Source: an uncultured Bacilli bacterium
GTDB taxonomy: Bacteria; Bacillota_I; Bacilli_A; RF39; UBA660
NCBI GenBank assembly: GCA_949065595.1
Contig: CARSXK010000007.1
Location: 1,769-16,528 of the forward strand
Reading direction: 5' to 3'
DNA: 14,760 bases
Shown piece by piece: positions 1 to 14,760 of the stretch. The notes under the pieces were generated by a model, which had not been told where the DNA came from, did no database searches, and saw only the letters and a list, made by a program, of their open reading frames with translations. Position 1 is the first letter of the stretch; every line of letters begins with the position of its first letter. Both the position numbers and the translations under genes were made by a program.

Positions 1-795
1 TGGCCCTGTTGGCCCTTGTGGAATGGCAAAATCCAATAAAACATGGTCTCCCACTGTTTGTTGCATAACAGCGGCCATTGTTCCTGGTTGTAAAGTTGCT
101 ACATTCCCAACTTGAAATTGAAAACTCACCCCTGTTGGTCCTATTGGTCCTGGAATACCTTGTGGTCCTGGTGGCCCTTGAATATGACCAACATTTTCCC
201 AATTATTGCTGGTATCTGACCATACATATAAATCTCCACCCACTAAATAAGCATCTGATACATTCCCAACTGGATGAGCATTTATCAAATCAGCAAATGT
301 ATCATAAGATCCTAAAATATTTACTCCGGTTCCTGCTGGCCCTGTTGGCCCTGTGGGTCCTGTTGGTCCTGTTACACCAGTTGGCCCAATCAAACCTGGA
401 ACACCTTGTGGTCCTTGAAGCCCTTGGGGTCCTGTCGGTCCTGTCGGTCCTGTAGCGCCATCCAGCCCATTGTCTCCTGGAAGTCCTGGGATGCCTTGAA
501 GTCCTTGTGGACCCGTGGGTCCTATTGATCCTGGGATGCCTTGTGGTCCCTGAAGCCCTTGAGGTCCAGCAACCCCTTCTGGTCCCGTTGGCCCTGTGGG
601 TCCAGTCGGTCCTGTTATCCCCGTTGGCCCTGTTGGTCCTGTTGGTCCGCCAGATGGTCCTGTTGGCCCCGTTGGGCCTGGTATGGCAATTACATTAGAA
701 ATATTTCCGCAAACATTTTGATCCGCTTCAATTTTGGCAAGTGCTTCTCTATATATATTACTCGATGGATTTCCACAATTATTACAAGAATTCAT
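1..795 (-). CDS. Collagen-like (Gly-X-Y) triple-helix repeat protein, N-terminal 265 codons; the 3' end runs off the window
   Basis: Minus-strand ATG at 793-795, preceded by GGAGGA (complement of 802-807). Hand translation gives [65 protein letters not shown]..., with about 115 aa of GXY repeats. A non-collagen insert follows ([50 protein letters not shown]), then more GXY, then [44 protein letters not shown] checked the frame codon by codon at both ends and at 301-342, and it stays open to position 1. It is missing from the ORF track only because no stop lies inside the window. Confidence 0.85.
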
Positions 796-853
796 AATGA
801 TTCCTCCTTTTCTATTATAAAATATGCAGCTTTTAACTTTATTGCTAATACAT

Positions 854-892
854 ATGTAGATAAAAAAATGTAGATTTCATTTTTATCTACAT
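854..892. repeat. Three copies of the octamer ATGTAGAT (direct at 854-861 and 868-875, inverted at 885-892); the outer copies extend to 13-bp hairpin arms (854-866 / 880-892)
   Basis: Read directly: ATGTAGATAAAAA-aatgtagatttca-TTTTTATCTACAT. It lies 60-100 nt upstream of the collagen-like gene start, between that gene and the terminator of the preceding gene. Confidence 0.6.
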
Positions 893-1168: not shown

Positions 1169-3385
1169 CTAATTTATACATATTTTTTTTAATTTCTGAC
1201 ATAAACTCGTTTTACGAATTCTTTCATTGTTATTTGAAACACTATAAACAAATGCCTGTGGTTCTCCAATTAAAATCAACTTTCGTTTGGCTCTGGTTAT
1301 TCCAGTATAAATGAGTTTACGATATAACATTCTATAATAAGACATACAAATAGGTAAAACAACCATTTCAAATTCGCTACCTTGAGATTTATGGATACTA
1401 ATAATATAACCATGTTTTATTTTAGAAAAATCTTTGGGCAAATACTTCACTTCTAATCCATCATAATCCACATAGATTTCATTTTTTTTACTTTTGCTTT
1501 GTTGTGCAGGAATAATGTATTTAATGATCCCAATATCTCCGTTGAACACGTTTTCATCTGGCATATTGACTAGCTGCAATACTTTATCATTTTCTCTAAA
1601 TATCACATCACCTACTTGGATTTCCCTTTTCCCTTCTTCCTTTGGATTCCATATCATCTGCAATATTTGATTGAAACGATCAATTCCGTTCATCCCAGCA
1701 TACATAGGTGCCATGACTTGTACTCTTTTATAATCGTATCCTTTTTCAATTAACTGTTCTGTTAATTTTTGCAATGTTGGGCCAATTTGCTCTGATGAAC
1801 AATTTAAAAATGTAAAATCATTGGTGGTATTCAAATACTGATTACTCAACTGATTATTTTTGATTTCTTCTGCCAAAACAGGAATATAAGAATCGGTACT
1901 TTGTCGATATAATAACTCCAAAGGAACTGTAGAAATACATTCACTTAATAATAAATCCTTTAGAACTTGACCAGGACCAACGCTTGCAAGTTGATTGGCA
2001 TCCCCAACCAATACCAATTGAATATTGGAAGTGAGTCCTTTTAGCAAATGGCCAAATAATTCAACATCAATCATACTCACCTCATCAACTACAATTAAAT
2101 GTTGCAAAGCAGGATTCCATTCATTGACTGCAAACTCATTGTTATCTTTATTCCATTTTAAAAATCGATGGATGGTTGTAGCTGGAAATAAGGTAGACTC
2201 CATCATCCGTTTACTCGCTCTTCCTGTAGGTGCCAACAAAGCAATTTGTTTCTCCGCTTCTTCTGCCGTCAAATGATTGAGACTCTGATACAATTCTACA
2301 ATCGCCTTAATAATGGTCGTCTTACCTGTCCCTGGTCCTCCTGTAATAATGGTAATATGTTTTTGAAGTGCTTCTTTAATCGCCTTTTTTTGTGCTTCAT
2401 TATATTCCATTTGTTGTGTATGTTCTAATATTTTTATTTTTTCATCCAAGGTTTGATTGATGGAATCTTTCTTTTGTAATAATGTTGAAATTCGCTTTAC
2501 AATATATTGTTCTGCTTCATAAATGGCTTTTAAATAATAATATCCTTCTTCTTCTATCAATTTATGTTCCAAACACAAGTCCTTTATATTGGCTTGAAAG
2601 ACATCTTTGTCCATTTCTGCATGAAAAAATTGATTACAGTTTTCATATATTTCCTCTAATGTAAAATAAGTATCTCCTGTTTCAAAAGAAAGTTTTTTAC
2701 AAATATGTAATAATCCTGCTTTGATGCGTCTTTCATCCATTGCATCCATGTTTAATTTTAGAGCAATGGAATCCACTTTTGTAAACGTAATTTCCTCAAC
2801 ATCGTCAATGGTTCTATAAATATTATGCTCCAATTCTAGAACAGTATTACTCTTATAACAATGATAAATCGCCAAAGCATCTTTCATAGAAAAACCAAGT
2901 TCTGTTAAGTACACGATCGTTTTATGACTTTCTTCATATTGTGTTAAGTGATCATAAATCTGTTTTTGTTTTTGATAAGAAAGTTTAGGAACTAAATTTA
3001 AACATGCTGGTTCTTCTAAAATACGCTCTAAAGTTTGGTCACCTAAAACTTCTACAATTTTAGTTGCCATTTTCTCCCCAATTCCTGGAAATAAATCACT
3101 AGATAAAAAGGCAATAATACCATCTTTGTCTTCTGGCTTCATATGCTCACATTCTGTTACCTGAAATTGAAAACCATATTTAGGATGTTGAACAGTTTCA
3201 CCATGTAATAAATAGATGTCATCTTCCTTTAAATCTGCAAAATATCCAGTAAAAGTCAATGTTTTTTCAATATAATCCTTTAATTCTTCATCGTTAGTTT
3301 CTTTGACCTTTAATATGCCAATTACAAAGCCTTTTTCAGAAGAAAAAATACTTCTTTTATAAATTCCTTTTACATATTTCTGCAT
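1169..3385 (-). CDS. recD2: ATP-dependent RecD-like DNA helicase (RecD2/YrrC family, SF1B)
   Basis: 738 aa. Walker A is GGPGTGKTT and Walker B is VVDEVSMID. The C-terminal motif is SIHKSQGSEF...YTGITRAK. The N-terminal OB/HhH-like region is typical of Bacillus YrrC. Confidence 0.92.
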   Translation of the reverse strand: MQKYVKGIYKRSIFSSEKGFVIGILKVKETNDEELKDYIEKTLTFTGYFADLKEDDIYLLHGETVQHPKYGFQFQVTECEHMKPEDKDGIIAFLSSDLFPGIGEKMATKIVEVLGDQTLERILEEPACLNLVPKLSYQKQKQIYDHLTQYEESHKTIVYLTELGFSMKDALAIYHCYKSNTVLELEHNIYRTIDDVEEITFTKVDSIALKLNMDAMDERRIKAGLLHICKKLSFETGDTYFTLEEIYENCNQFFHAEMDKDVFQANIKDLCLEHKLIEEEGYYYLKAIYEAEQYIVKRISTLLQKKDSINQTLDEKIKILEHTQQMEYNEAQKKAIKEALQKHITIITGGPGTGKTTIIKAIVELYQSLNHLTAEEAEKQIALLAPTGRASKRMMESTLFPATTIHRFLKWNKDNNEFAVNEWNPALQHLIVVDEVSMIDVELFGHLLKGLTSNIQLVLVGDANQLASVGPGQVLKDLLLSECISTVPLELLYRQSTDSYIPVLAEEIKNNQLSNQYLNTTNDFTFLNCSSEQIGPTLQKLTEQLIEKGYDYKRVQVMAPMYAGMNGIDRFNQILQMIWNPKEEGKREIQVGDVIFRENDKVLQLVNMPDENVFNGDIGIIKYIIPAQQSKSKKNEIYVDYDGLEVKYLPKDFSKIKHGYIISIHKSQGSEFEMVVLPICMSYYRMLYRKLIYTGITRAKRKLILIGEPQAFVYSVSNNNERIRKTSLCQKLKKICIN

Positions 3386-3406
3386 CTTATCATTCCTATC
3401 ATTTAC

Positions 3407-3435
3407 ATTATATCAAACATACGTTCTAATTACAA
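3407..3435 (-). promoter_or_regulatory. Sigma-A-type promoter of recD2 (TTGTAA-17 nt-TATAAT) with a Cheo-box-like element in the spacer
   Basis: On the minus strand the -35 TTGTAA is at 3430-3435 and the -10 TATAAT is at 3407-3412. The spacer contains AGAACGTATGTTTG (3414-3427), against the Firmicute LexA consensus CGAAC-N4-GTTCG. Confidence 0.45.
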
Positions 3436-3469
3436 ATAAATTTCAAAAAGAAAAAAGTCTTCTATGACT

Positions 3470-4087
3470 TTATTTTTTGAATTTTTGATGTCCTTCCAGT
3501 TCGGTTTCTAATTCTACCAAACCTTTTGTCCTAATGTCTTCCAATCTTTTTTGTTCCTGTTCCAACTGAATGTTTCGTTGATAATCAATTTCTGAATATA
3601 TATTAGGAATGCAAGCACAACCACTTCCTAATAACACACTAAACAGAATCATCGTACCAATTGTTTGTTTGATTCTATCTTTTCCTTTTGATTCCTCACT
3701 GTTAGCTCTATGAAGAAGATTCACCAAAGTTTTTTCTAGATCTCCCCATTCTAAATCGAGACATTTTTTCGTATATATCTCTTTGCTGACTTTCAATATC
3801 AACCGTTTTGTTGGTGCAGATAAACATTTTGATTTTATATTTCCTTTTTTGGCGCAGAAAATAAAGTACATACCATCCTTATTCATACAAAGAAAGCCAT
3901 CTATATTTTCAATCTTCACTCTCAATTCATGCAACAAATCAGAAACAATGATATCTGCTTGACCATTCTCTGGCGATATTTGTCTAAAGACAAATGCCTC
4001 CTGATTCACATCAATATATTGCAATCCATCCATATATGTTGCCGTATCATGCAATTCATAAACCAAACACTCATAATTTTTTGACAT
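3470..4087 (-). CDS. Hypothetical single-pass membrane protein (about 145-aa N-terminal domain, one TM segment, short charged coiled-coil tail)
   Basis: 205 aa. The RBS GGAGTGGAG and a TTGACA-16-TATACT promoter lie in 4088-4140. The TM segment is TIGTMILFSVLLGSGCACIPNIY. I recognise no family motif. Confidence 0.7.
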   Translation of the reverse strand: MSKNYECLVYELHDTATYMDGLQYIDVNQEAFVFRQISPENGQADIIVSDLLHELRVKIENIDGFLCMNKDGMYFIFCAKKGNIKSKCLSAPTKRLILKVSKEIYTKKCLDLEWGDLEKTLVNLLHRANSEESKGKDRIKQTIGTMILFSVLLGSGCACIPNIYSEIDYQRNIQLEQEQKRLEDIRTKGLVELETELEGHQKFKK

Positions 4088-4161
4088 TTTCTCAACTCCA
4101 CTCCCACTAGTATACTGTATTTTTAAAATATGTCAAATTATCAAATCTAATTCAAAAACGT

Positions 4162-5448
4162 CTAATTGGTATTTTTGGAATGAATGACAAGTACACTCCT
4201 ATGTTCAAAATGAAAAGCATCTACTACTTTTCTAAAATCACTGTAATTTAAACTTTGATACTCGTCATATAAATTGCTCCTGACATGACCATATCTTACA
4301 AAATCGCTCACCAATCGATTATTAAGTCGATCTACACTATCACTCATAAAAATACAAGAACTTAAAATTGTCTTCTTTTTACGAATGAAATCTGCCTCTA
4401 TCGTTTTTGTATTTTTGAGTTCTAAATCAATACGACTAATCAATTCATCTTGTCTTTCTGTTTCTCCTTCAATACTTAACAAAATATGACTTTCAATATC
4501 AGAAAAATCAAAATATAAATCTTCTGTTACCACCTTATCTTTTTTGAGTTGTTCTAAAAAAGATGAGGTTGCGCTCAATTTAATATCCAAATAAATCGAA
4601 ACATATAAAGAAAGTAATGTATCTGGAATATCCTTCATTTCTCTTTTATTTAATTTATAATTGATGAATATTTTAGGAATCGTCACATTCATAGCAATAC
4701 TTTCAAATTCCTTATTTACGGTATCTGGTTCTTGATATTCCTGAATTTTAATTGGTTCTGGTTTTGGAAATTGTTTTCTTGCCTGATTTTTTCGAATCCA
4801 TTCCATTGTCATTTCAGGATCTACATTACCAGTAATCACAAGAGCCATATTAGAAGGATGGTAAAATGTTTCATAGCAAGTATATAAATCTTTTTCAGTG
4901 ATGGATTCTACACTTTCTTTAGTACCACCTGTAGAAATCCGAAGTGGATGCACTTGTAGCAAATTCAAATTGCTTTTTTCAAATCCAACCCGATAAGGAT
5001 TATCCATATACATTTCGATTTCTTGTATTATGATTCCCTTTTCTTTTTCTACATTTTTCTTTGTAAAATAGGGTGATTGAACAAAATCAAGTAAAAAATT
5101 CAAATTTTTTTCAAAATCCTGCGTCCCTGCAAACCAGTAATTTGTTTGCCAAGGATTGGTAGAAGCATTGCACTCACTTCCACTTTCATCAAAGAAAGAA
5201 AACGGATCAACCCCATCTTCTTGTTCAAACAATTTATGTTCCAAAAAATGGGCAACTCCATCTGGAACACGAATCATTTCTGTTTTTCCCATTGGAACAA
5301 ATTCACTAACATTAGATCCATACTTGGTAACTAATGTAGCTCTTGCATTGTTACAATTTTCTTTTGGAACAATATAAACTTGTAGACCTTGTTCTAATGT
5401 TTCCTCATAAATGGTCAAATCCAAATGCTCAAAGGGTATCTTTTTCAT
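4162..5448 (-). CDS. M16 (pitrilysin/insulinase) family zinc metallopeptidase, catalytically competent subunit
   Basis: The inverted zinc motif HxxEH is present (VAHFLEHKLFEQE). I chose the start at the internal ATG 5446-5448 (MKKIPFEHLD...), which is preceded by AGGAGG. The track start at 5499 has no RBS. Confidence 0.85.
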   Translation of the reverse strand: MKKIPFEHLDLTIYEETLEQGLQVYIVPKENCNNARATLVTKYGSNVSEFVPMGKTEMIRVPDGVAHFLEHKLFEQEDGVDPFSFFDESGSECNASTNPWQTNYWFAGTQDFEKNLNFLLDFVQSPYFTKKNVEKEKGIIIQEIEMYMDNPYRVGFEKSNLNLLQVHPLRISTGGTKESVESITEKDLYTCYETFYHPSNMALVITGNVDPEMTMEWIRKNQARKQFPKPEPIKIQEYQEPDTVNKEFESIAMNVTIPKIFINYKLNKREMKDIPDTLLSLYVSIYLDIKLSATSSFLEQLKKDKVVTEDLYFDFSDIESHILLSIEGETERQDELISRIDLELKNTKTIEADFIRKKKTILSSCIFMSDSVDRLNNRLVSDFVRYGHVRSNLYDEYQSLNYSDFRKVVDAFHFEHRSVLVIHSKNTN

Positions 5449-6715
5449 TTTTGCCTCCTTCCAATAAATAAACGGTATCAACATGAATTTTTTTAGCAAG
5501 TTCTACAATCATGTCTTTTGTTACTTTTTTGATATTGTCTATTTTTTCTTCTAGCAAATCATTTCCCATATATTCATGTACCAAATAAATATTAGATAAT
5601 AGTGTTGGGGAATCCTCTACTTCCTTACAACCACTTATGAAAGTTGCAACAGCTTTTTCCATCATTTTAGAATCAAATTCCCCTTGCTGCATACTTTCAA
5701 TTTGTTCCTTGATTAAATTTAAGGTCTTTTTAAATGTTTTCGCATCAATTCCGGCAGAAATGACCAAAGTATGATACAAATAATTGTAGTTAGAATTAAT
5801 AAAATAGCAAAGTGAATTTTTTTCACGAACCGTTTGAAATAATTTAGAGTCTCCGCCCCCACCTAAGATAAAAGAATAAATATTCATAACATATTGGCGT
5901 TCAAAAGGGGTCAGTTCTTCTACTTTACAACCAATCAATAGCTGACTTTGTGTAATATCCATCGGCTCTTTTACTACTTGTTCTTCTTCTGAAAAATTTG
6001 TATAGTTTAATATATGTTCCCCAGTTGCCATTTGATTTTTAGGCGCTACAATATATTTTTCTATGTAAGATTTTGCCTGTTGTGAATCAATATCACCAAT
6101 GACAAAAACATCTACAATTGAATTATTTATCAGATTTTGATAATAAGTATATAAATTTTTTCTTGTAATTTTTTCTAAATCTTCTAAATACCCAGAAGGA
6201 TGATAAGAAAGTTTAGAATCTGGTGCCATGACTTCATATAAACGAAGTAAACTATATCGTCTCGGATTATCCTTGGTACTACGAATGTCTTCCTCTAATC
6301 CTTTTTTTATAATATCAAATGAGGTTTCATCAAAACAACCATCTACTACATTTGGGTGATATAGTAAATTCATAAAAAAAGCAATTGATTTTTCATTCAT
6401 ACCTAATTCTGTATATTTTTCATTTAAAAACCGACATTTAAAAGATAAAATACTATATTTACCTGATCGAATATTCGCTCCATTAACAGAGATATTATAT
6501 AAATCTTCTGTCGCGATAGAAAGTGCTTTACTGGTTGGATATTCCTTGCATGTAGAAAGTAACATATCATCTAAAAAATTGCGTATTGTTATTTCTTCTT
6601 TTTTGAGCTCATTTTTATAGTTGACAATGACTTGTATCGTTTTAAAGCGATCGGTTTTTATGATGTGCAAATTATAATTTTCTTGAGACAATTTTTGATA
6701 ATTCATAGCGTTCAC
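5429..6715 (-). CDS. M16 family peptidase-like protein lacking the zinc-binding motif (non-catalytic partner)
   Basis: 428 aa with M16-like length and layout. The position of HxxEH reads NFLDD. The RBS is AGAGGTGA. Its 3' end overlaps the next M16 gene by 20 nt. Confidence 0.8.
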   Translation of the reverse strand: MNAMNYQKLSQENYNLHIIKTDRFKTIQVIVNYKNELKKEEITIRNFLDDMLLSTCKEYPTSKALSIATEDLYNISVNGANIRSGKYSILSFKCRFLNEKYTELGMNEKSIAFFMNLLYHPNVVDGCFDETSFDIIKKGLEEDIRSTKDNPRRYSLLRLYEVMAPDSKLSYHPSGYLEDLEKITRKNLYTYYQNLINNSIVDVFVIGDIDSQQAKSYIEKYIVAPKNQMATGEHILNYTNFSEEEQVVKEPMDITQSQLLIGCKVEELTPFERQYVMNIYSFILGGGGDSKLFQTVREKNSLCYFINSNYNYLYHTLVISAGIDAKTFKKTLNLIKEQIESMQQGEFDSKMMEKAVATFISGCKEVEDSPTLLSNIYLVHEYMGNDLLEEKIDNIKKVTKDMIVELAKKIHVDTVYLLEGGKNEKDTL

Positions 6716-9073: not shown

Positions 9074-9105
9074 AAGAGAATTCATTGGAATCCTCTTTTA
9101 TTTTT
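9072..9105. terminator. Bidirectional terminator shared by the convergent lexA and lipoprotein genes
   Basis: A 12-bp stem AAAAGAGAATTC / GAATCCTCTTTT has one mismatch and a 4-nt loop (ATTG). T-tracts flank it on both strands. It overlaps both stop codons. Confidence 0.6.
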
Positions 9106-9823
9106 CGTATTTTTCTTTTAGTCCTTGATACCAATTGCTTACTTTTTCTTTTCCAGATTGATACACATGAGAAGCGCCTTCTTGAATCATCCCAGCAGTA
9201 TTTTGGAATGCTTCCACCATATCATCTTTGGCTTCTACAAAATTTTGATAATTGTCACTTCCCATTGTGGATTCTAGCTTTTCTGATATTTTATGTGTTA
9301 AATTAGCAGCTTCTGTTTTTACATACTGAAGTACAATTTGATACTTTTCTTTTAATGTATCTTTATACCCAGGTAATTTATTTTCAATCGCTTGATCCAT
9401 GCGTGCTAAAACTGCACACACTTTTTCTTGTGCGCTTGCTGTCAAATCCTTGAAATAAAGATTTCCTATTGGTTGTTCATAATAGATAAAATCAACCAAC
9501 ATAATGAATTTTGTTGCAATGGTTTCTTTGGCTGATTCTATCTTTTCTGATGCAAGAAGTGTCGTAATTTCTTGTTCTAAAGAATCAATCTGTTGCATTG
9601 CTTGTTCCTCCTTTGTAATAACAGGAGTATTTTTTATTGATCCATCTTCTAATGATTCACTTACTGGTATAGTGGGTTCAACATCCAAACTAGAAGATTC
9701 TGGATTGGAGTCCGTTTCTTCTTTGATTCCCACATCTACTTTTTGATTGTTTTCATTTTGAACAATCCTTTTTTCATTACAACCAGTTACCAATATTAAA
9801 CTTACTAATACAATCCATTTCAT
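9098..9823 (-). CDS. Hypothetical lipoprotein
   Basis: The signal peptide with lipobox is MKWIVLVSLILVTGC. An acidic low-complexity linker is followed by a helical domain. The start ATG overlaps the queH stop (ATGA). Confidence 0.8.
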   Translation of the reverse strand: MKWIVLVSLILVTGCNEKRIVQNENNQKVDVGIKEETDSNPESSSLDVEPTIPVSESLEDGSIKNTPVITKEEQAMQQIDSLEQEITTLLASEKIESAKETIATKFIMLVDFIYYEQPIGNLYFKDLTASAQEKVCAVLARMDQAIENKLPGYKDTLKEKYQIVLQYVKTEAANLTHKISEKLESTMGSDNYQNFVEAKDDMVEAFQNTAGMIQEGASHVYQSGKEKVSNWYQGLKEKYEK

Positions 9824-11230: not shown

Positions 11231-11259
11231 TTGGCAATCATAAAATTATATGGTATAAT
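11231..11259 (+). promoter_or_regulatory. Promoter of tRNA-Thr (TTGGCA-17 nt-TATAAT with TGn extension)
   Basis: TTGGCA is at 11231-11236 and TGGTATAAT is at 11251-11259, about 18 nt upstream of the tRNA 5' end. Confidence 0.6.
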
Positions 11260-11276: not shown

Positions 11277-11350
11277 GCCGCCTTAGTTAAGTGGTATAAC
11301 AGAGCCATGGTAAGGCTCAGTTGTAAGTTCGATTCTTACAGGTGGCACCA
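11277..11350 (+). tRNA. tRNA-Thr, anticodon GGU, CCA encoded
   Basis: Hand-folded cloverleaf. The acceptor stem is GCCGCCT/AGGTGGC (one G-U pair). The D arm is GTTA-AGTGGTA-TAAC. The anticodon arm is GAGCC-ATGGTAA-GGCTC, placing GGT at positions 34-36 with U33 and A37. The variable loop is AGTT and the T arm is GTAAG-TTCGATT-CTTAC. The discriminator A and CCA follow, for 74 nt in total. Confidence 0.9.
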
Positions 11351-11433
11351 GATTGATAGGAAACTCGAACTTTCTATATTTTTGTAGAAATTCGAGTTTT
11401 AATATGCTTTAAATTATTGTATAATATATTTGT
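11344..11433 (+). repeat. Module copy A: tRNA 3' end, downstream core, terminator hairpin and promoter-like stretch
   Basis: The core GGCACCAGATTGATAG is at 11344-11359 (the last 7 nt of the tRNA plus 9 nt downstream). The hairpin is AAACTCGAA-c-TTTCTA / TAGAAA-TTCGAGTTT (11361-11399). It is followed by GAGTTTTAATATGCTTTAAATTATTGTATAATATATTT, with an extended -10 TGTATAAT at 11418-11425. Confidence 0.75.
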
Positions 11434-11469
11434 AGTAACCAAACTAAACTTATTTATCAGGAGGTTTTA

Positions 11470-12330
11470 ATGAACAAAGAAATAGTTCAATCAGAAATAA
11501 ATGTAAATGATAACAAAATAAAAGTAATAAGAATAGGATCTAAAGAATATATATCTTTAACCGATTTAGCAAGATATGCAAATCCAGAAGAGCCTAAAGT
11601 CCCTATACAAACTTGGATGAGAAATAAAGATGTAATAGCTTATTTAGGATTGTGGGAAAAATTAAATAACGAAAATTTCAAAGGTCACGAATTTACGACC
11701 TTTGAAAATTCTGCTGGTAGAAATAGTTTTTATATGTCACCACAAAAGTGGGTCAAGGAAACAAACGCAATAGGAATTGTATCAAAATCTGGAAATAATG
11801 GTGGTACATATGCTTGCAGTGATATTGCTTTGGAATTTGCAAGTTGGTTATCTCCAGAATTTAAATTATATGTTATTCAAGAATTTGAAAGATTAAAGAA
11901 AAATGAAGCGTACCAGTATAAGCTTGATTGGTCTGCTAACAGAATGCTTGCAAAAACTAACTATCATATCCATACAGATTCTATTAAAGAAAATATTGTA
12001 CCTAAATTAACTGAAAAACAAAAACAATATATCTATGCAGAAGAAGCTGACGTGTTAAATGTAGCATTATTTGGTATGACTGCCAAAGAATGGAGAGAAG
12101 AAAATCCAAATTTAAAAGGCAATATTCGCGACTATACTGATTTAAAACATTTACTAATTTTATGTAACCTAGAAAATACTAATGCTGAACTCATTAACGA
12201 TAATATTCCACAAAAAGAAAGATTGGTAAAATTAAATAATTCTGCAATTAGACAAATGAAAATTTTAGAAAATGATAAGAGTATAAAGGAACTTGAAACA
12301 TTAAATAAAAATCTAATTGAAACGAAATAA
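11470..12330 (+). CDS. KilA-N domain-containing DNA-binding protein
   Basis: 286 aa with RBS AGGAGG. YISLTDLARYAN...WMRNKDVIAYLGLWEKLNNENF...GRNSFYMSPQKWVKETNAIGIVSKSGNNGGTYACSDIALEFASWLSPEFKLYVIQEFERLK matches the widespread KilA-N family pattern as I remember it. Confidence 0.8.
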   Translation: MNKEIVQSEINVNDNKIKVIRIGSKEYISLTDLARYANPEEPKVPIQTWMRNKDVIAYLGLWEKLNNENFKGHEFTTFENSAGRNSFYMSPQKWVKETNAIGIVSKSGNNGGTYACSDIALEFASWLSPEFKLYVIQEFERLKKNEAYQYKLDWSANRMLAKTNYHIHTDSIKENIVPKLTEKQKQYIYAEEADVLNVALFGMTAKEWREENPNLKGNIRDYTDLKHLLILCNLENTNAELINDNIPQKERLVKLNNSAIRQMKILENDKSIKELETLNKNLIETK

Positions 12331-12434
12331 AGTGTCAATTTAGTAAAACACACTTGTACATTGACATCATCAATGCACACACGGAACTTAAGTTTTTCGC
12401 CATTAAATCTTTTAGTAGTAGAAGTTGAGAAAAT

Positions 12435-12602
12435 ATGAAAAAAGTACTTGTTTTATATTCTAGTGGTAAAGATTCAACGTTAAGTGCCATGTTATTAATA
12501 AAGCAAGGATATCAAGTATTTTTAATATATTATGATAATTCATTAGAAATTGGTAATCACAATGTTAAAAATGATGCTAAAAGATTAGAAAAAAATACAT
12601 AA
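12435..12602 (+). pseudogene. Remnant (55 codons) of a PP-loop ATP pyrophosphatase
   Basis: MKKVLVLYSSGKDSTLSAMLLIKQGYQVFLIYYDN... carries an SGGxDS-type PP-loop (SSGKDS). It stops after 55 aa, whereas family members are more than 200 aa. The downstream frames contain several stops before the next gene. The RBS is weak. Confidence 0.55.
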
Positions 12603-12683
12603 GCGGTAAGGTAATATATTGATGCAGTAAAAAATCTAGAAGTAGAAAAAATATAACAGTATTGAGATAGGAGAAAACTATAT

Positions 12684-13208
12684 ATGACAGATAATAGGAG
12701 TGAATATTTTGTATTTGTTCCCTTTTGTTTATTGGCACAAGCGTATCAAGCTCAAGGAATTGTAAAATATGAATGGAAAAGTTCGATAAAACCATTCGTA
12801 AATCTTCTTATTGACAATGATATTAATATAATTCAAATGCCATGTGCTGAAAGTACCTTTCATAATAATCTAATAAGAGAAACAAAGGGACTAACAAAAT
12901 ATAATACAGTGGATTTTAACATACATTGTGAACATATAGCAAAAGAAGTTTCTAATCAGATAAAACAACTTATAGAATCAAATTATAAAGTAATAGCAGT
13001 TTTAGGAATAGAACAATCACCATCGTGCTGTGTAAACTATATATATACTAATCATGGAAACGAAAACCGAAAAGGTATATTTATAGAAAAATTGTATGAA
13101 AAAATTAAAGAATATGATATACCTATTATAGGTATTAACAGAAAATATATTAATAAATCTCTAAAACAATTAGAAAAAATAATTAATGCAACAAAAATCA
13201 AAAACTGA
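12684..13208 (+). CDS. Cys-motif protein, possibly a divergent DUF523/TudS-like [4Fe-4S] protein
   Basis: 174 aa. Cys residues lie at 15 (PFCLLAQ), 54 (MPCAES), 82 and 115/116 (EQSPSCCV). Their order and context resemble the CLLG / CPE / SPSCG motifs I recall for DUF523. The ORF itself is solid; the family assignment is tentative. Confidence 0.55.
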   Translation: MTDNRSEYFVFVPFCLLAQAYQAQGIVKYEWKSSIKPFVNLLIDNDINIIQMPCAESTFHNNLIRETKGLTKYNTVDFNIHCEHIAKEVSNQIKQLIESNYKVIAVLGIEQSPSCCVNYIYTNHGNENRKGIFIEKLYEKIKEYDIPIIGINRKYINKSLKQLEKIINATKIKN

Positions 13209-13233
13209 AAAGTTGTTGAACGTCCTTCCTTAG

Positions 13234-13304
13234 GGCACCAGATTGATAGATACTCCACTTTATTGTTGGAGTTTTAATATACTTAAAATTATGATAGAAT
13301 ATTT
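13234..13304 (+). repeat. Module copy B: displaced tRNA 3' end core, hairpin and promoter-like stretch
   Basis: The core GGCACCAGATTGATAG at 13234-13249 is identical to 11344-11359. The hairpin is ACTCCA/TGGAGT (13252-13272). It is followed by GAGTTTTAATATACTTAAAATTATGATAGAATATTT, about 80% identical to copy A, with TGATAGAAT at 13292-13300. It starts 26 nt after the stop at 13208. Confidence 0.75.
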
Positions 13305-13353
13305 CTATAAATTAAATTGATTTTGTCAATATACATTTAAAGGAGGGACCAAA

Positions 13354-14145
13354 ATGTATGGGGCTATTATAGGAGATTTAGCAGGATCGATATATGAATT
13401 CGGCCAAATAAAAAAAGTATCCCCTATTTCTGTTAATAAAATAATTGAAGATAATAGTTTTTACAGTGATGATACTATTTTAACAATTGCTATACTTGAT
13501 GCCATATTAAATCATGACCAAAATTATGAACTGTATCTTAAAAAATACATAAAAGCATATTTGAATTATAAACCAAATTATAAACCATATTTTAAAACAC
13601 CCTTTTCTCCCAAATTAATAAAATGGTATGAAGGCAGCATTGAAGGTCAAAGTAAGGGAAATGGAGCAATGATGCGAGTTTCATCAATTGGTTATTTATT
13701 TAACACTAAATATGAAATTCTAAATCAATCCATATTAGCGACTATACCATCTCATTATTCTTTAGAAGCGATAAACGCGTCTCAAATAGTATCATTAATT
13801 ATTTACTATGGAAGATTAGGTATGTCAAAAAAAGAAATAATTAGTAAAATAAATAATCCCTTTGATTACCAACCGTTTCATCAATTTAATACAACATGTC
13901 GTGAGACTTTACCAAATTGTTTATACGCCTTATTCTCATCGAATCATTTTGAAGAAGCTATCAGAACAATAATATCATATGGTGGCGATACAGATACTAA
14001 TGCTTGCATCGTAGGTTCTATGGCTGAAGCTTTATACGGTATAGATGAAAATCTTATTTTACTGGCGAAGAAAAAAATTCCTAGTGAGTTTAATGATATT
14101 CTAGAAAAAGGATATCGTAAAATTCAGAAGCCTATTTTATATTAA
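13354..14145 (+). CDS. ADP-ribosylglycohydrolase family protein (DraG/ARH fold)
   Basis: 263 aa with RBS AAAGGAGGG. The family motifs are YGAIIGDLAGSIYEF, YSDDTILT, GNGAMMRVSSIG and GGDTDTNACIVGSMAEALYG. Confidence 0.88.
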   Translation: MYGAIIGDLAGSIYEFGQIKKVSPISVNKIIEDNSFYSDDTILTIAILDAILNHDQNYELYLKKYIKAYLNYKPNYKPYFKTPFSPKLIKWYEGSIEGQSKGNGAMMRVSSIGYLFNTKYEILNQSILATIPSHYSLEAINASQIVSLIIYYGRLGMSKKEIISKINNPFDYQPFHQFNTTCRETLPNCLYALFSSNHFEEAIRTIISYGGDTDTNACIVGSMAEALYGIDENLILLAKKKIPSEFNDILEKGYRKIQKPILY

Positions 14146-14175
14146 AAATCAGAAAGACTACATCACTATCAACCT

Positions 14176-14256
14176 ACCAGATTGTCGCATGATATTGCTC
14201 TATACCATTGCTAATCATTTCATGTTTAATAAAGTTTCATTCTGATAAAACATTTT
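14176..14256 (+). repeat. Possible degenerate third module copy (C)
   Basis: ACCAGATTG (14176-14184) matches 9 of 16 core positions. TTTAATAAAGTTTCATTCTGATAAAACATTTT (14225-14256) aligns loosely with the promoter-like half of copies A and B. Like copy B, it begins about 30 nt after the preceding stop codon (14145). Confidence 0.35.
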
Positions 14257-14412: not shown

Positions 14413-14760
14413 ATGGCTTATATTCTATTTCATATTCCACATGCATCTTTAAAGATTCCAAAACAATATTGGAGTATCTGTATAAAAAATAAAGATTATA
14501 TCAAAAAAACAAATCAATTTTAAGTGACTTCTTAACAGATAAATTGGTTCCCTATCGATGTCACAAATTGGTATTTCCATACTCTAGAATTTTTTGTGAT
14601 GTTGAAAAATTTAAAATAAGATTCAGAAGAAACCATGTCCAAAAAAGGAATGGGTGCAATTTATACAAATGATTGTGATTATGTAATTGCTACTCCAACC
14701 AAAAAATATAAAAAGAAAGTATTACAATCCTATTATGATACCCATCATAATAAATTAGAT
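14413..14760 (+). pseudogene. N-formylglutamate amidohydrolase family (PF05013-like) gene interrupted by two frameshifts; continues past the window
   Basis: The RBS is AGGAGG. Frame 1 reads MAYILFHIPHASLKIP...DYIKKTNQF, with a stop at 14521. Homology continues in another frame (SDFLTDKLVPYRCHKLVFPYSRIFCDVEKFK). It returns to the original frame after 14620 (DSEETMSKKGMGAIYTND...YYDTHHNKLD). HxPHxS, SRxxxDxE(K/R) and E.M..GMG are the family landmarks as I recall them. A TTGCAT-18-TAAAAT promoter is at 14359-14388. Confidence 0.7.

Follow-up and report, generated by a model that had tools for sequence, protein, structure and literature searches.

What has divided the DNA behind a tRNA-Thr(GGU) gene of an uncultured Bacilli bacterium into short, similarly organized groups of genes? 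The question arises from a 14,760-nt stretch of contig CARSXK010000007.1 (the window), in which a preliminary description had noticed a duplicated 16-mer, each copy followed by a hairpin and a promoter-like sequence, and had proposed that small islets without an integrase were accreted there one after the other. We compared the window with loci and contigs fetched from other metagenome assemblies (designated by L-numbers). The results suggest that the region 3′ of the tRNA gene probably consists of two tandem units of small non-autonomous integrative elements, which in turn are probably deletion derivatives of integrative mobilizable elements encoding a large serine recombinase (LSR) and a MobV relaxase.

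The 16-mer GGCACCAGATTGATAG is present in two exact copies at 11344-11359 (copy A) and 13234-13249 (copy B) and nowhere else in the window, even when up to three mismatches were allowed; in none of 200 shuffled sequences were two matches obtained. Downstream of each copy a hairpin can be folded (A: dG -19 kcal/mol, z -5.7; B: dG -7.8 kcal/mol, z -2.5). The 44 nt compared after the hairpins (A, 11391-11434; B, 13266-13309) are 80% identical, and by sequence reading each copy contains an extended -10 promoter region followed by a ribosome-binding site (RBS) and the start codon of a gene. Up to this point the preliminary description proved accurate. The promoters and terminators were predicted by reading of the sequence, folding and conservation, as a simple scanner misses both hairpins on account of loop length and a bulge, and also the first promoter, which has no -35 region. 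A third, eroded copy C, which had been proposed at 14176, could not be upheld: it has only 9 nt in common with the others, did not reveal a hairpin (fold z +1.07) and was not detected by the covariance model R1 (see below) at E ≤ 10. Its case is further weakened by the presence of CCAGATTG inside an open reading frame (ORF) at 9153. There, CCAGATTGATA, 11 nt of the junction core, resides at 9153-9163 within a 241-amino-acid ORF (9098-9823; R1 10.5 bits, E 2.6), probably by chance.

The following features were assigned, in which LE and RE denote the left and right end of a unit, and P1 and P2 its first and second promoter-like element:

11231-11259, plus strand: promoter-like site of the tRNA-Thr gene, TTGGCA-17-TATAAT with TG (promoter scan).
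11277-11350, plus strand: tRNA-Thr(GGU) gene, CCA-terminated, putative target of the array (attB side; ARAGORN; Rfam RF00005, 64.6 bits).
11351-11404, plus strand: LE of unit 1, GATTGATAGG spacer, predicted terminator hairpin (11360-11400) and U-tract (fold; R1 73.5 bits by construction).
11405-11469, plus strand: P1 region of unit 1, extended -10 TGTATAAT at 11418-11425, RBS GGAGG at 11460-11464 (sequence).
11470-12330, plus strand: KilA-N family gene, 286 amino acids, signature gene of the unit, predicted DNA-binding regulator (Pfam KilA-N, 3.4e-20).
12331-12368, plus strand: P2, promoter/operator-like element right after the KilA-N stop codon (GTGTCAATTTAGTAAAACACACTTGTACATTGACA), putative point of cargo exchange (conservation).
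12435-12602, plus strand: cargo, truncated PP-loop ATPase fragment, 55 amino acids (Pfam DUF7411, ThiI and tRNA_Me_trans, N-terminus only).
12684-13208, plus strand: cargo, TudS-related (CD3072-family-like) Cys-rich protein (NCBIfam NF045597, 92.5 bits, below cutoff; Pfam 2-thiour_desulf weak).
13209-13240, plus strand: RE of unit 1, AAAGTTGTTGAACGTCCTTCCTTAGGGCACCA, tRNA-3′-end-like and CCA-terminated (conservation).
13241-13282, plus strand: LE of unit 2, GATTGATAG and a shorter predicted terminator hairpin (13252-13272; R1 39.3 bits, E 2.5e-6; copy outside the model).
13283-13353, plus strand: P1 of unit 2 (TGATAGAAT at 13292-13300) joined to the 3′ portion of a P2-like element (TTGTCAATATAC), RBS at 13340-13347.
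13354-14145, plus strand: cargo of unit 2, ADP-ribosylglycohydrolase (Pfam 4.4e-29; PHROG 6572).
14176-14184, plus strand: putative copy C, ACCAGATTG, possible decayed junction, not demonstrable (9-nt match alone).
14415-14760, plus strand: FGase-like pseudogene running past the window end, possibly an older decayed islet (in-frame stop codons).

Unit 1 comprises positions 11351-13240 and contains LE, the KilA-N gene, P2, the cargo and a 32-nt RE ending in GGGCACCA. Every internal junction of such an array reads ...GGGCACCA directly followed by GATTGATAG. Since a unit extends from GATTGATAG to GGGCACCA, the 16-mer represents the RE of one unit joined to the LE of the next. It is not a duplicated end of the host tRNA gene, as had been assumed, for the sequence upstream of copy B is the element's own 32-nt RE, and the bases in common with the target tRNAs amount to 5-6 nt. 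The observation that the repeat extends beyond an att-like core was correct insofar as copies A and B are homologous; they are, however, the left ends of two related elements rather than the products of an att duplication. The order of the genes (KilA-N, PP-loop remnant, Cys-rich protein, ADP-ribosylglycohydrolase, FGase-like pseudogene) agrees with the Pfam results and gene calls; in L135 the calls for the FGase-like gene are fragmented (36 and 135 amino acids, the latter FGase). Unit 2, which starts at 13241, is best read as a KilA-N-deleted derivative, because its LE and first promoter continue into the 3′ portion of a P2-like element (TTGTCAATATAC). The motif CAATATAC in this region is shared with the P2 regions of L006 and L008.

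Within the units, some sequences are conserved beyond the ends. TGATAAAAT in the P1 region is kept across species, and P2, with the consensus TGTCAATTTAGAAAACACACTTGCATATTGnCA, is kept in most related loci. Behind P2 the loci differ in their cargo, which was identified as the PP-loop fragment with the TudS-like gene, RibD_C, a metallo-beta-lactamase fold or a Pol-beta nucleotidyltransferase; by eye we take further cargo genes to encode Nudix, HIT, GNAT and HD proteins and peptidases. Locus L011 is a recombinant, in which the KilA-N allele of the window type is joined to the RibD_C cargo, indicating that cargo is exchanged at P2. Insertions within units were also encountered. In L142 (5703-6869) an insertion sequence, whose ORF presumably encodes an IS110-family transposase, splits the region between a 90-amino-acid gene and KilA-N, and KilA-N is frameshifted.

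An exact look-up of the KilA-N protein disclosed ten fetched contigs that encode the identical 286-amino-acid protein in quite different places. The 126 nt upstream of its start codon are identical in nine of the ten copies, while L015 differs at three positions. Compared with the window, seven copies of the ORF deviate by 20-21 nt and three by 0-1 nt, all differences being synonymous. This restriction to synonymous changes, together with the invariance of the upstream 126 nt, indicates that both the protein and the upstream element are constrained. The 126-nt block is located directly after the CCA of tRNA-Thr in the window, of tRNA-Leu in L007, L009 and L013, and of tRNA-Arg-TCT in L008, L011 and L012; in L006 and L010 it follows a tRNA-Thr-like remnant of 17-20 nt downstream of a Mob_Pre gene. 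Identity among these insertion sites always begins at CACCA, the only sequence that their upstream sides have in common. The tRNA-Arg copy in L008 contains the whole unit: from the tRNA end to 13255 it is 99.5% identical to the window, and the two sequences diverge approximately 6 nt after the second 16-mer, where the preliminary description had expected a breakpoint. Its proposal of small islets serially accreted at a tRNA 3′-end is borne out by the occurrence of the left end and KilA-N gene of unit 1 behind Thr, Leu and Arg tRNAs and by the tandem LE/RE junctions. The synteny CmpB-tRNA-Thr-KilA-N was not found in other species.

The right end could be delimited in the same way. In L007, a RibD_C cargo is followed by the same RE sequence, AAAAGTTGTTGAACGTCCTCCCTTAGGGCACCA, and then by an unrelated flank (GGGCACCA followed by GTAAGC), unlike the window and L008, where RE precedes another LE. 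The same 31-33-mer was detected right after the stop codons of unrelated cargo genes in L007, L016, L018, L064, L089 and L045. RE looks like a decayed 3′-portion of a tRNA, judging from its relatives, one of which retains a recognizable T-arm (L044) and another a whole tRNA copy (L028); its own RNA fold was not significant (z -0.66). The terminus of RE repeats the 3′-end of the target (GGGCACCA at 13233-13240), and does so in L007, L167 and L168 before the native flank as well. The identity of this terminus to the target covers 5-7 nt, and the bases that the units have in common with the target tRNAs are limited to CACCA or GCACCA. As the intact tRNA-Thr gene ends at 11350 and LE begins at 11351, the insertion leaves the target gene whole.

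Assemblies often break at these sequences. Four of five CmpB-carrying contigs stop at window position 11402, and several KilA-N contigs start at 11339-11344, which is consistent with the module being a repeat. At the end of one deposited MAG contig (L136 1-49; GCA_949015795.1, CARLNC010000022.1), 49 nt of Illumina adapter sequence adjoin the RE repeat without a gap.

To what extent is the LE module tied to tRNA genes? A search of one-genome-per-species contigs yielded more than 564 KilA-N protein relatives, practically all of them from metagenome-assembled genomes (MAGs) labelled Bacilli, Tenericutes, Clostridia or Erysipelotrichaceae. The covariance model R1 was built on alignment A4 of 33 modules from other genomes (one row, L006a, is identical to copy A) and was applied to 80 species-level loci (1.25 Mb). 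R1 recovered copy B of the window, which is absent from the model, and 30 distinct LE modules in the related loci. For 18 of the 30, the starting point is precisely the CCA of an intact gene for a tRNA or tmRNA (Thr, six; Arg, four; Leu, three; tmRNA, three; Met and Cys, one each); seven are preceded by an RE-like 31-mer, three by an end of the ...CTTAACTATCGCACCA type and two by other sequences. Other tRNA genes of the same loci possess unrelated terminators. The module is thus bound to the 3′-ends of tRNA genes, and the possibility of a generic intergenic repeat, which the preliminary description had raised against itself, does not hold. At least Thr, Leu, Arg, Gly, Met and Cys tRNA genes and the tmRNA gene are occupied by the family. 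In the alignment, 93% of the cells of the LE stem are paired, one base pair being replaced by G.U seven times and by G-C twice, and the stem is followed by TTTTAATAT; the hairpin fits an intrinsic terminator acting at the RNA level.

The window itself did not reveal a recombinase, either by Pfam or by tblastn with tyrosine integrase and LSR queries, which agrees with the absence of an integrase noticed before; the suggestion that a recombinase might lie just beyond 14760 was not substantiated by the next 6 kb. Nor was a Mob gene found in the window. Among the cargo ORFs, whose translations were inspected by eye and in four cases by Pfam, there was likewise no recombinase. LE (11351-11404) and RE (13209-13240) enclose the KilA-N gene and the cargo alone, i.e., both ends are kept without any genes for recombination or transfer.

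When the recombinase queries were run over all fetched loci, LSR genes were identified directly behind tRNA genes. Relatives that encode an LSR are L044, L039, L167 and L168. L044 has the order tRNA-Leu, LE, an 89-amino-acid gene, LSR, Mob_Pre, further genes, KilA-N, a 128-amino-acid gene, a partial-tRNA-like sequence ending in CGCACCA, and the native flank. Its LSR contains Resolvase, Recombinase and Zn-ribbon domains, and the locus, about 7 kb in length, is an integrative mobilizable element in complete form. The same order of LE, a 90-amino-acid gene and LSR exists in L039 (tRNA-Gly), in L089 and in three viral contigs; in L089 the LSR gene is a pseudogene, and a canonical RE precedes the unit. 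Most informative were L167 and L168, which share a 4,433-nt segment (99.5% identity) encoding a 91-amino-acid protein, the identical LSR protein P0314 and Mob_Pre (MobV relaxase). The left neighbour of the segment is the tmRNA gene in L167 (ending in ...CTCCACCA) and tRNA-Leu(TAG) in L168 (ending in ...CCGCACCA), and the native flanks after RE differ as well. In both, LE reads GATTGATAGGAAACTCGAAC, the same 20 nt as the start of the LE in the window, and RE reads AAAAGTTATTCGACTTCTTCTTCACAGGCACCA, of which 22 of 33 positions are identical to the RE of the window (counted by hand). Thus, an LSR element without KilA-N uses the same ends. A close LSR variant was found after tRNA-Leu(CAA). The Mob_Pre protein of L006 is 53% identical to that of L044, Mob_Pre being also present in L167. 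A partial ORF upstream of Mob_Pre in L006 was considered as a C-terminus of an LSR and discarded for lack of detectable similarity. The existence of LSR/MobV relatives with the same ends makes mobilization of the window's units in trans a reasonable inference.

Could the module instead be a native 3′-flank signal of tRNA genes in this lineage, which is spread by homologous recombination or gene conversion, with KilA-N as a mere neighbour and no site-specific element at all? Several tRNA genes without KilA-N have module-like flanks, and many terminal tRNA genes in these genomes are followed by a TCGAAC-type hairpin at +14/+15. The recombinant L011, with its two alleles and two cargos, also conforms to homologous exchange. 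Furthermore, L028 contains, relative to L019, a 3-kb insert (2735-5832) encoding DUF488 and HopA1-like proteins and flanked by a duplication of the last 500 nt of a 267-amino-acid upstream gene (which we take by eye to be the undecaprenyl-diphosphatase gene uppP), the whole tRNA-Thr gene and 20 nt of the module; this duplication marks a Campbell-type homologous integration of a circle. The CACCA common to the different tRNA genes and the unit is, however, too short for a RecA-dependent exchange on the left side. Moreover, the same 4.4-kb element is placed between CCA and two unrelated native flanks, the right end of the units is conserved irrespective of the cargo, and the terminators of the other tRNA genes are unrelated, as mentioned above. 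We therefore regard a native flank signal as unlikely and retain the explanation by non-autonomous integrative units.

Under this explanation, the ends of a unit would function as follows. RE joined to LE, about 55 conserved bp, would constitute an attP-like site of the LSR, which recombines with the CCA terminus of tRNA and tmRNA genes, presumably by a crossover within CCA, so that the unit lands between CCA and the native flank. RE would mimic the tRNA 3′-end, finishing in GCACCA, and repeated insertion may then lead to arrays of the type tRNA, unit, unit. The terminator of LE may insulate the unit from the tRNA promoter and replace the displaced native terminator of the tRNA, while the extended -10 promoter of the unit would drive its genes. 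KilA-N may regulate P2, the point at which cargo would be swapped, with one to three cargo genes per unit. Units lacking an LSR, those of the window possibly still among them, would most likely owe their movement to such a recombinase acting in trans and, at times, to homologous exchange. At tRNA-Leu, a precise empty site would read ...GAGCACCA directly followed by GTAAGCAATCTG. Whether an LSR of this particular clade moves the units of the window is in our estimation evenly balanced. Of the two routes envisaged by the preliminary description, mobilization in trans and exchange by flank homology, the former thus gains support from the LSR/MobV relatives, although the trans step itself is deduced, and the latter from the event in L028.

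The attachment sites of LSRs comprise an attP of approximately 50 bp with imperfect dyad symmetry and a central dinucleotide shared with attB. RE and LE together amount to about 55 bp, and CACCA or GCACCA could hold the central dinucleotide; global tests for dyad symmetry were not significant. Among 50 genes, 47 have the T-loop core GTTCRA beginning at -24, and 14 of 50 flanks have a TCGAAC-like motif beginning at +14 or +15 after CCA, compared to a background of 0.2 per position. This mirror symmetry about CCA might fit the site of a dimeric recombinase, but we attach little weight to it.

A number of observations weigh against the proposed explanation. The TCGAAC at +15 doubles as the 5′-arm of the terminator stem and has a palindromic core (TCGA). 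Neither the dyad symmetry of RE plus LE around CCA nor a gapped inverted-repeat alignment of RE and LE was significant; since significant inverted repeats of RE and LE were not found, the model of an att site is based solely on where the ends lie and how they are conserved. Among related events, at least the one in L028 came about by homologous and not by site-specific integration. L044 and L089 deviate in the RE of their LSR element (...TATCGCACCA), which is unlike the canonical RE found in KilA-N units, and no recombinase of the family was present in the inspected part of the window's own genome (14.8 kb plus about 6 kb). Finally, the flanks of a 1.9-kb repeat cannot be phased and metagenome assemblies may misjoin repeats, each junction being spanned singly.

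Tyrosine-integrase phages use the same tRNA genes, which raises the question of whether the repeats are leftover att sites of such prophages or islands and the KilA-N units prophage remnants that lost their integrase end. In L141 and L140, the integrase gene ends about 70 nt from a tRNA-Gly fragment, in L132, L142 and L143 an endolysin gene adjoins a tRNA-Cys fragment, and KilA-N homologues occur in viral contigs. In those contigs, however, it is the host flank of the phage junction that contains the module, not the phage attP, and the tRNA fragments borne by the phages differ from RE. Between LE and RE, the LSR is the sole recombinase that was encountered, and near-identical units at several tRNAs misfit a classical tyrosine integrase with its long identity block. 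A prophage origin is accordingly rated as improbable, even slightly more so than a native flank signal.

Two other kinds of mobile DNA were rejected. Transposition of the IS200/IS605 or PATE type via single strands did not match the findings. Elements of this type are characterized by a Y1 HUH transposase and by subterminal hairpins that resemble each other at the two ends; here, a hairpin exists at LE alone, and the sole Y1 transposase is an unrelated insertion. The latter (Y1_Tnp, L006 6376-6795, IS200) is located on the opposite strand in the cargo of one unit and is absent elsewhere. An integron cassette array was discarded because there is no IntI or other integrase, RE does not fold and the cassettes bring their own promoters.

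As KilA-N is the sole gene common to the units, usually lies next to a tRNA and is under extreme purifying selection (all of the 0-21 differences per copy are synonymous), the protein itself might mediate insertion as an unrecognized recombinase or targeting factor of autonomous units. The properties of the protein do not favour this idea. It matches PHROG 2657 ("transcriptional regulator") over its full length. While a first AlphaFold2 (AF2) model from a shallow alignment was unusable (predicted local distance difference test, pLDDT, 49), a diverse alignment yielded a model with pLDDT 82.6, which shows the KilA-N domain and a long helical, dimerization-like region. Its only significant fold match in the PDB is the DNA-binding protein DdrC; a recombinase, nuclease or other catalytic fold or motif was not recognized in the model, and a sequence search of the PDB did not reveal a homologue. 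The family is pan-bacterial and in Bacteroidetes resides inside a Type III restriction-modification operon without linkage to tRNA genes. Besides, LSR elements without KilA-N have the same ends, and unit 2 lacks KilA-N. We thus consider autonomous insertion by KilA-N very improbable, and on the strength of the model the protein is a plausible regulator rather than an enzyme. In the Bacteroidetes lineage (L159-L166), a 294-amino-acid homologue, about 45-50% identical to the KilA-N protein of the window, is encoded between Mod and Res of the Type III operon. The full-length family spans phyla at unusually high identity.

The closest described system appears to be that of the Dehalococcoides ssrA islands, integrative mobilizable elements with the serine recombinase DsiB (McMurdie et al. 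2011, PMC3146451). There, too, a tRNA-like gene receives serine-recombinase elements at its 3′-part, tandem arrays downstream are split by short direct repeats of the 3′-end of the gene, conservation reaches beyond the repeat, and some members without an integration module were proposed to be cis-mobilizable (PMC3146451). The Dehalococcoides islands differ by their single target ssrA, insertion in the T-loop, a 20-bp repeat and a CcrB-like integrase plus a second small recombinase (PMC3146451). In the family studied here, by contrast, many tRNA genes and the tmRNA gene are occupied, the junction lies right after CCA and 5-6 bases are in common; complete elements possess a MobV relaxase and a gene of about 90 amino acids, while mini-units contain KilA-N and their own predicted terminator and promoter.

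A second parallel is offered by cis-mobilizable elements (CIMEs) and the accretion of integrative mobilizable elements in the Streptococcus ICESt1/3 family, a subject reviewed by Guedon et al. (2017). CIMEs are att-flanked DNA without genes for recombination or transfer that originates by decay of integrative elements and shares one attachment site with related elements, next to which it lies in tandem; they are defined experimentally, via mobilization with a neighbouring element. The ends of the units studied here, which are candidate CIME-like elements, differ in that they include a complete expression module.

The tycheposons of Prochlorococcus (Hackl et al., bioRxiv 10.1101/2020.12.28.424599) are likewise small cargo elements at tRNA genes with partial tRNA repeats between tandem insertions; degenerated remnants build variable islands, and a minority carries a large serine recombinase. 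They mostly use tyrosine recombinases, often contain replication genes, and each family is tied to particular tRNAs (10.1101/2020.12.28.424599). The KilA-N/LE/RE architecture is not described for them. Integron cassettes resemble the units by forming serial arrays of small cassettes at one site, with boundaries at a short conserved core and diverse cargo, but here there is neither IntI nor attI nor an attC hairpin with R and L boxes, each cassette has its own predicted promoter and terminator, and the target is the CCA end of a tRNA gene.

Elements of this kind are known as such; new are the junction at the CCA end, the targeting of many tRNAs by one family, the MobV backbone and the self-contained KilA-N mini-units. 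Their organization explains how small recombinase-less cassettes encoding hydrolases, nucleotide-modifying enzymes and similar proteins pile up behind tRNA genes, in this case in gut Bacilli with reduced genomes known only from metagenomes. By its own insulator and promoter, each cassette may be expressed wherever it has landed, leaving the tRNA undisturbed. A further-reaching idea, which we put forward tentatively and rate as somewhat less probable than its opposite, is that an LSR clade of uncultured gut Bacilli recognizes generic tRNA-like 3′-ends (T-loop GTTCRA at a fixed distance, CCA and a mirrored TCGAAC-type motif downstream) instead of a single gene and can therefore integrate behind the CCA of many tRNAs and of tmRNA, and that its mini-cassettes, composed of terminator, promoter, KilA-N, swappable cargo and tRNA-end mimic, parasitize the recombinase in trans and thereby build integron-like arrays. 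If it is true that the LSR can use whatever tRNA-like 3′-end it meets, with no more than a few bases in common, it would represent a serine integrase that is unusual in having many natural targets, which would make it interesting for genome engineering and for the study of integrase specificity. The LE and RE signatures would then also be a simple means to delimit the mobilome in MAGs, where these repeats currently break assemblies at LE and RE.

Polymorphism of cassettes among strains, which the preliminary description had predicted, was observed at a comparable locus. In a gut species of high prevalence (L145-L154, approximately 11900-17200), a strain-variable island is located behind tRNA-Leu(GAG) and KilA-N. 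At its far side, a convergent tRNA-Thr(CGT) gene is followed by an LE module pointing inward (L145 15745-15831, minus strand), so that the variable island is bracketed by two occupied tRNA ends. The island contains a second, unexplained cassette system: its cassettes are small and promoter-less and have their boundaries at another short repeat, ACAAATTACAAT, with the inverted repeat ACAAATTAC...GTAATTTGT. Sites of the ACAAATTACAAT system were also detected in L039 (7899-7910) and L064 (4048-4059). In some of the L145-L154 strains the island encodes an EF-G-like protein of 640 amino acids, possibly conferring tetracycline resistance by ribosomal protection, and an ANT(6)-type adenylyltransferase. 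These resistance genes of a related species belong to the separate cassette system with its different boundaries.

tRNA-Thr(GGT) at 11277-11350 is the only tRNA gene of the window and its sole match in an Rfam scan, and the genes located 5′ of the array are housekeeping genes encoding RecD2, two M16 peptidases, PNP, LexA, QueH and CmpB (Pfam etc.). About 2.5-2.8 kb past the window end, near the array, L135 contains a gene with a TfoX_N domain (4938-5243), similar to competence regulators, a mere hint that natural transformation and homologous exchange could contribute. At the opposite end of the window (1-870, minus strand), a long run of 9-nt periodic repeats of the CCTGTTGGT type can be read as a gene for a collagen-like Gly-X-Y protein that extends past the window start; its product in L001 comprises 432 amino acids.

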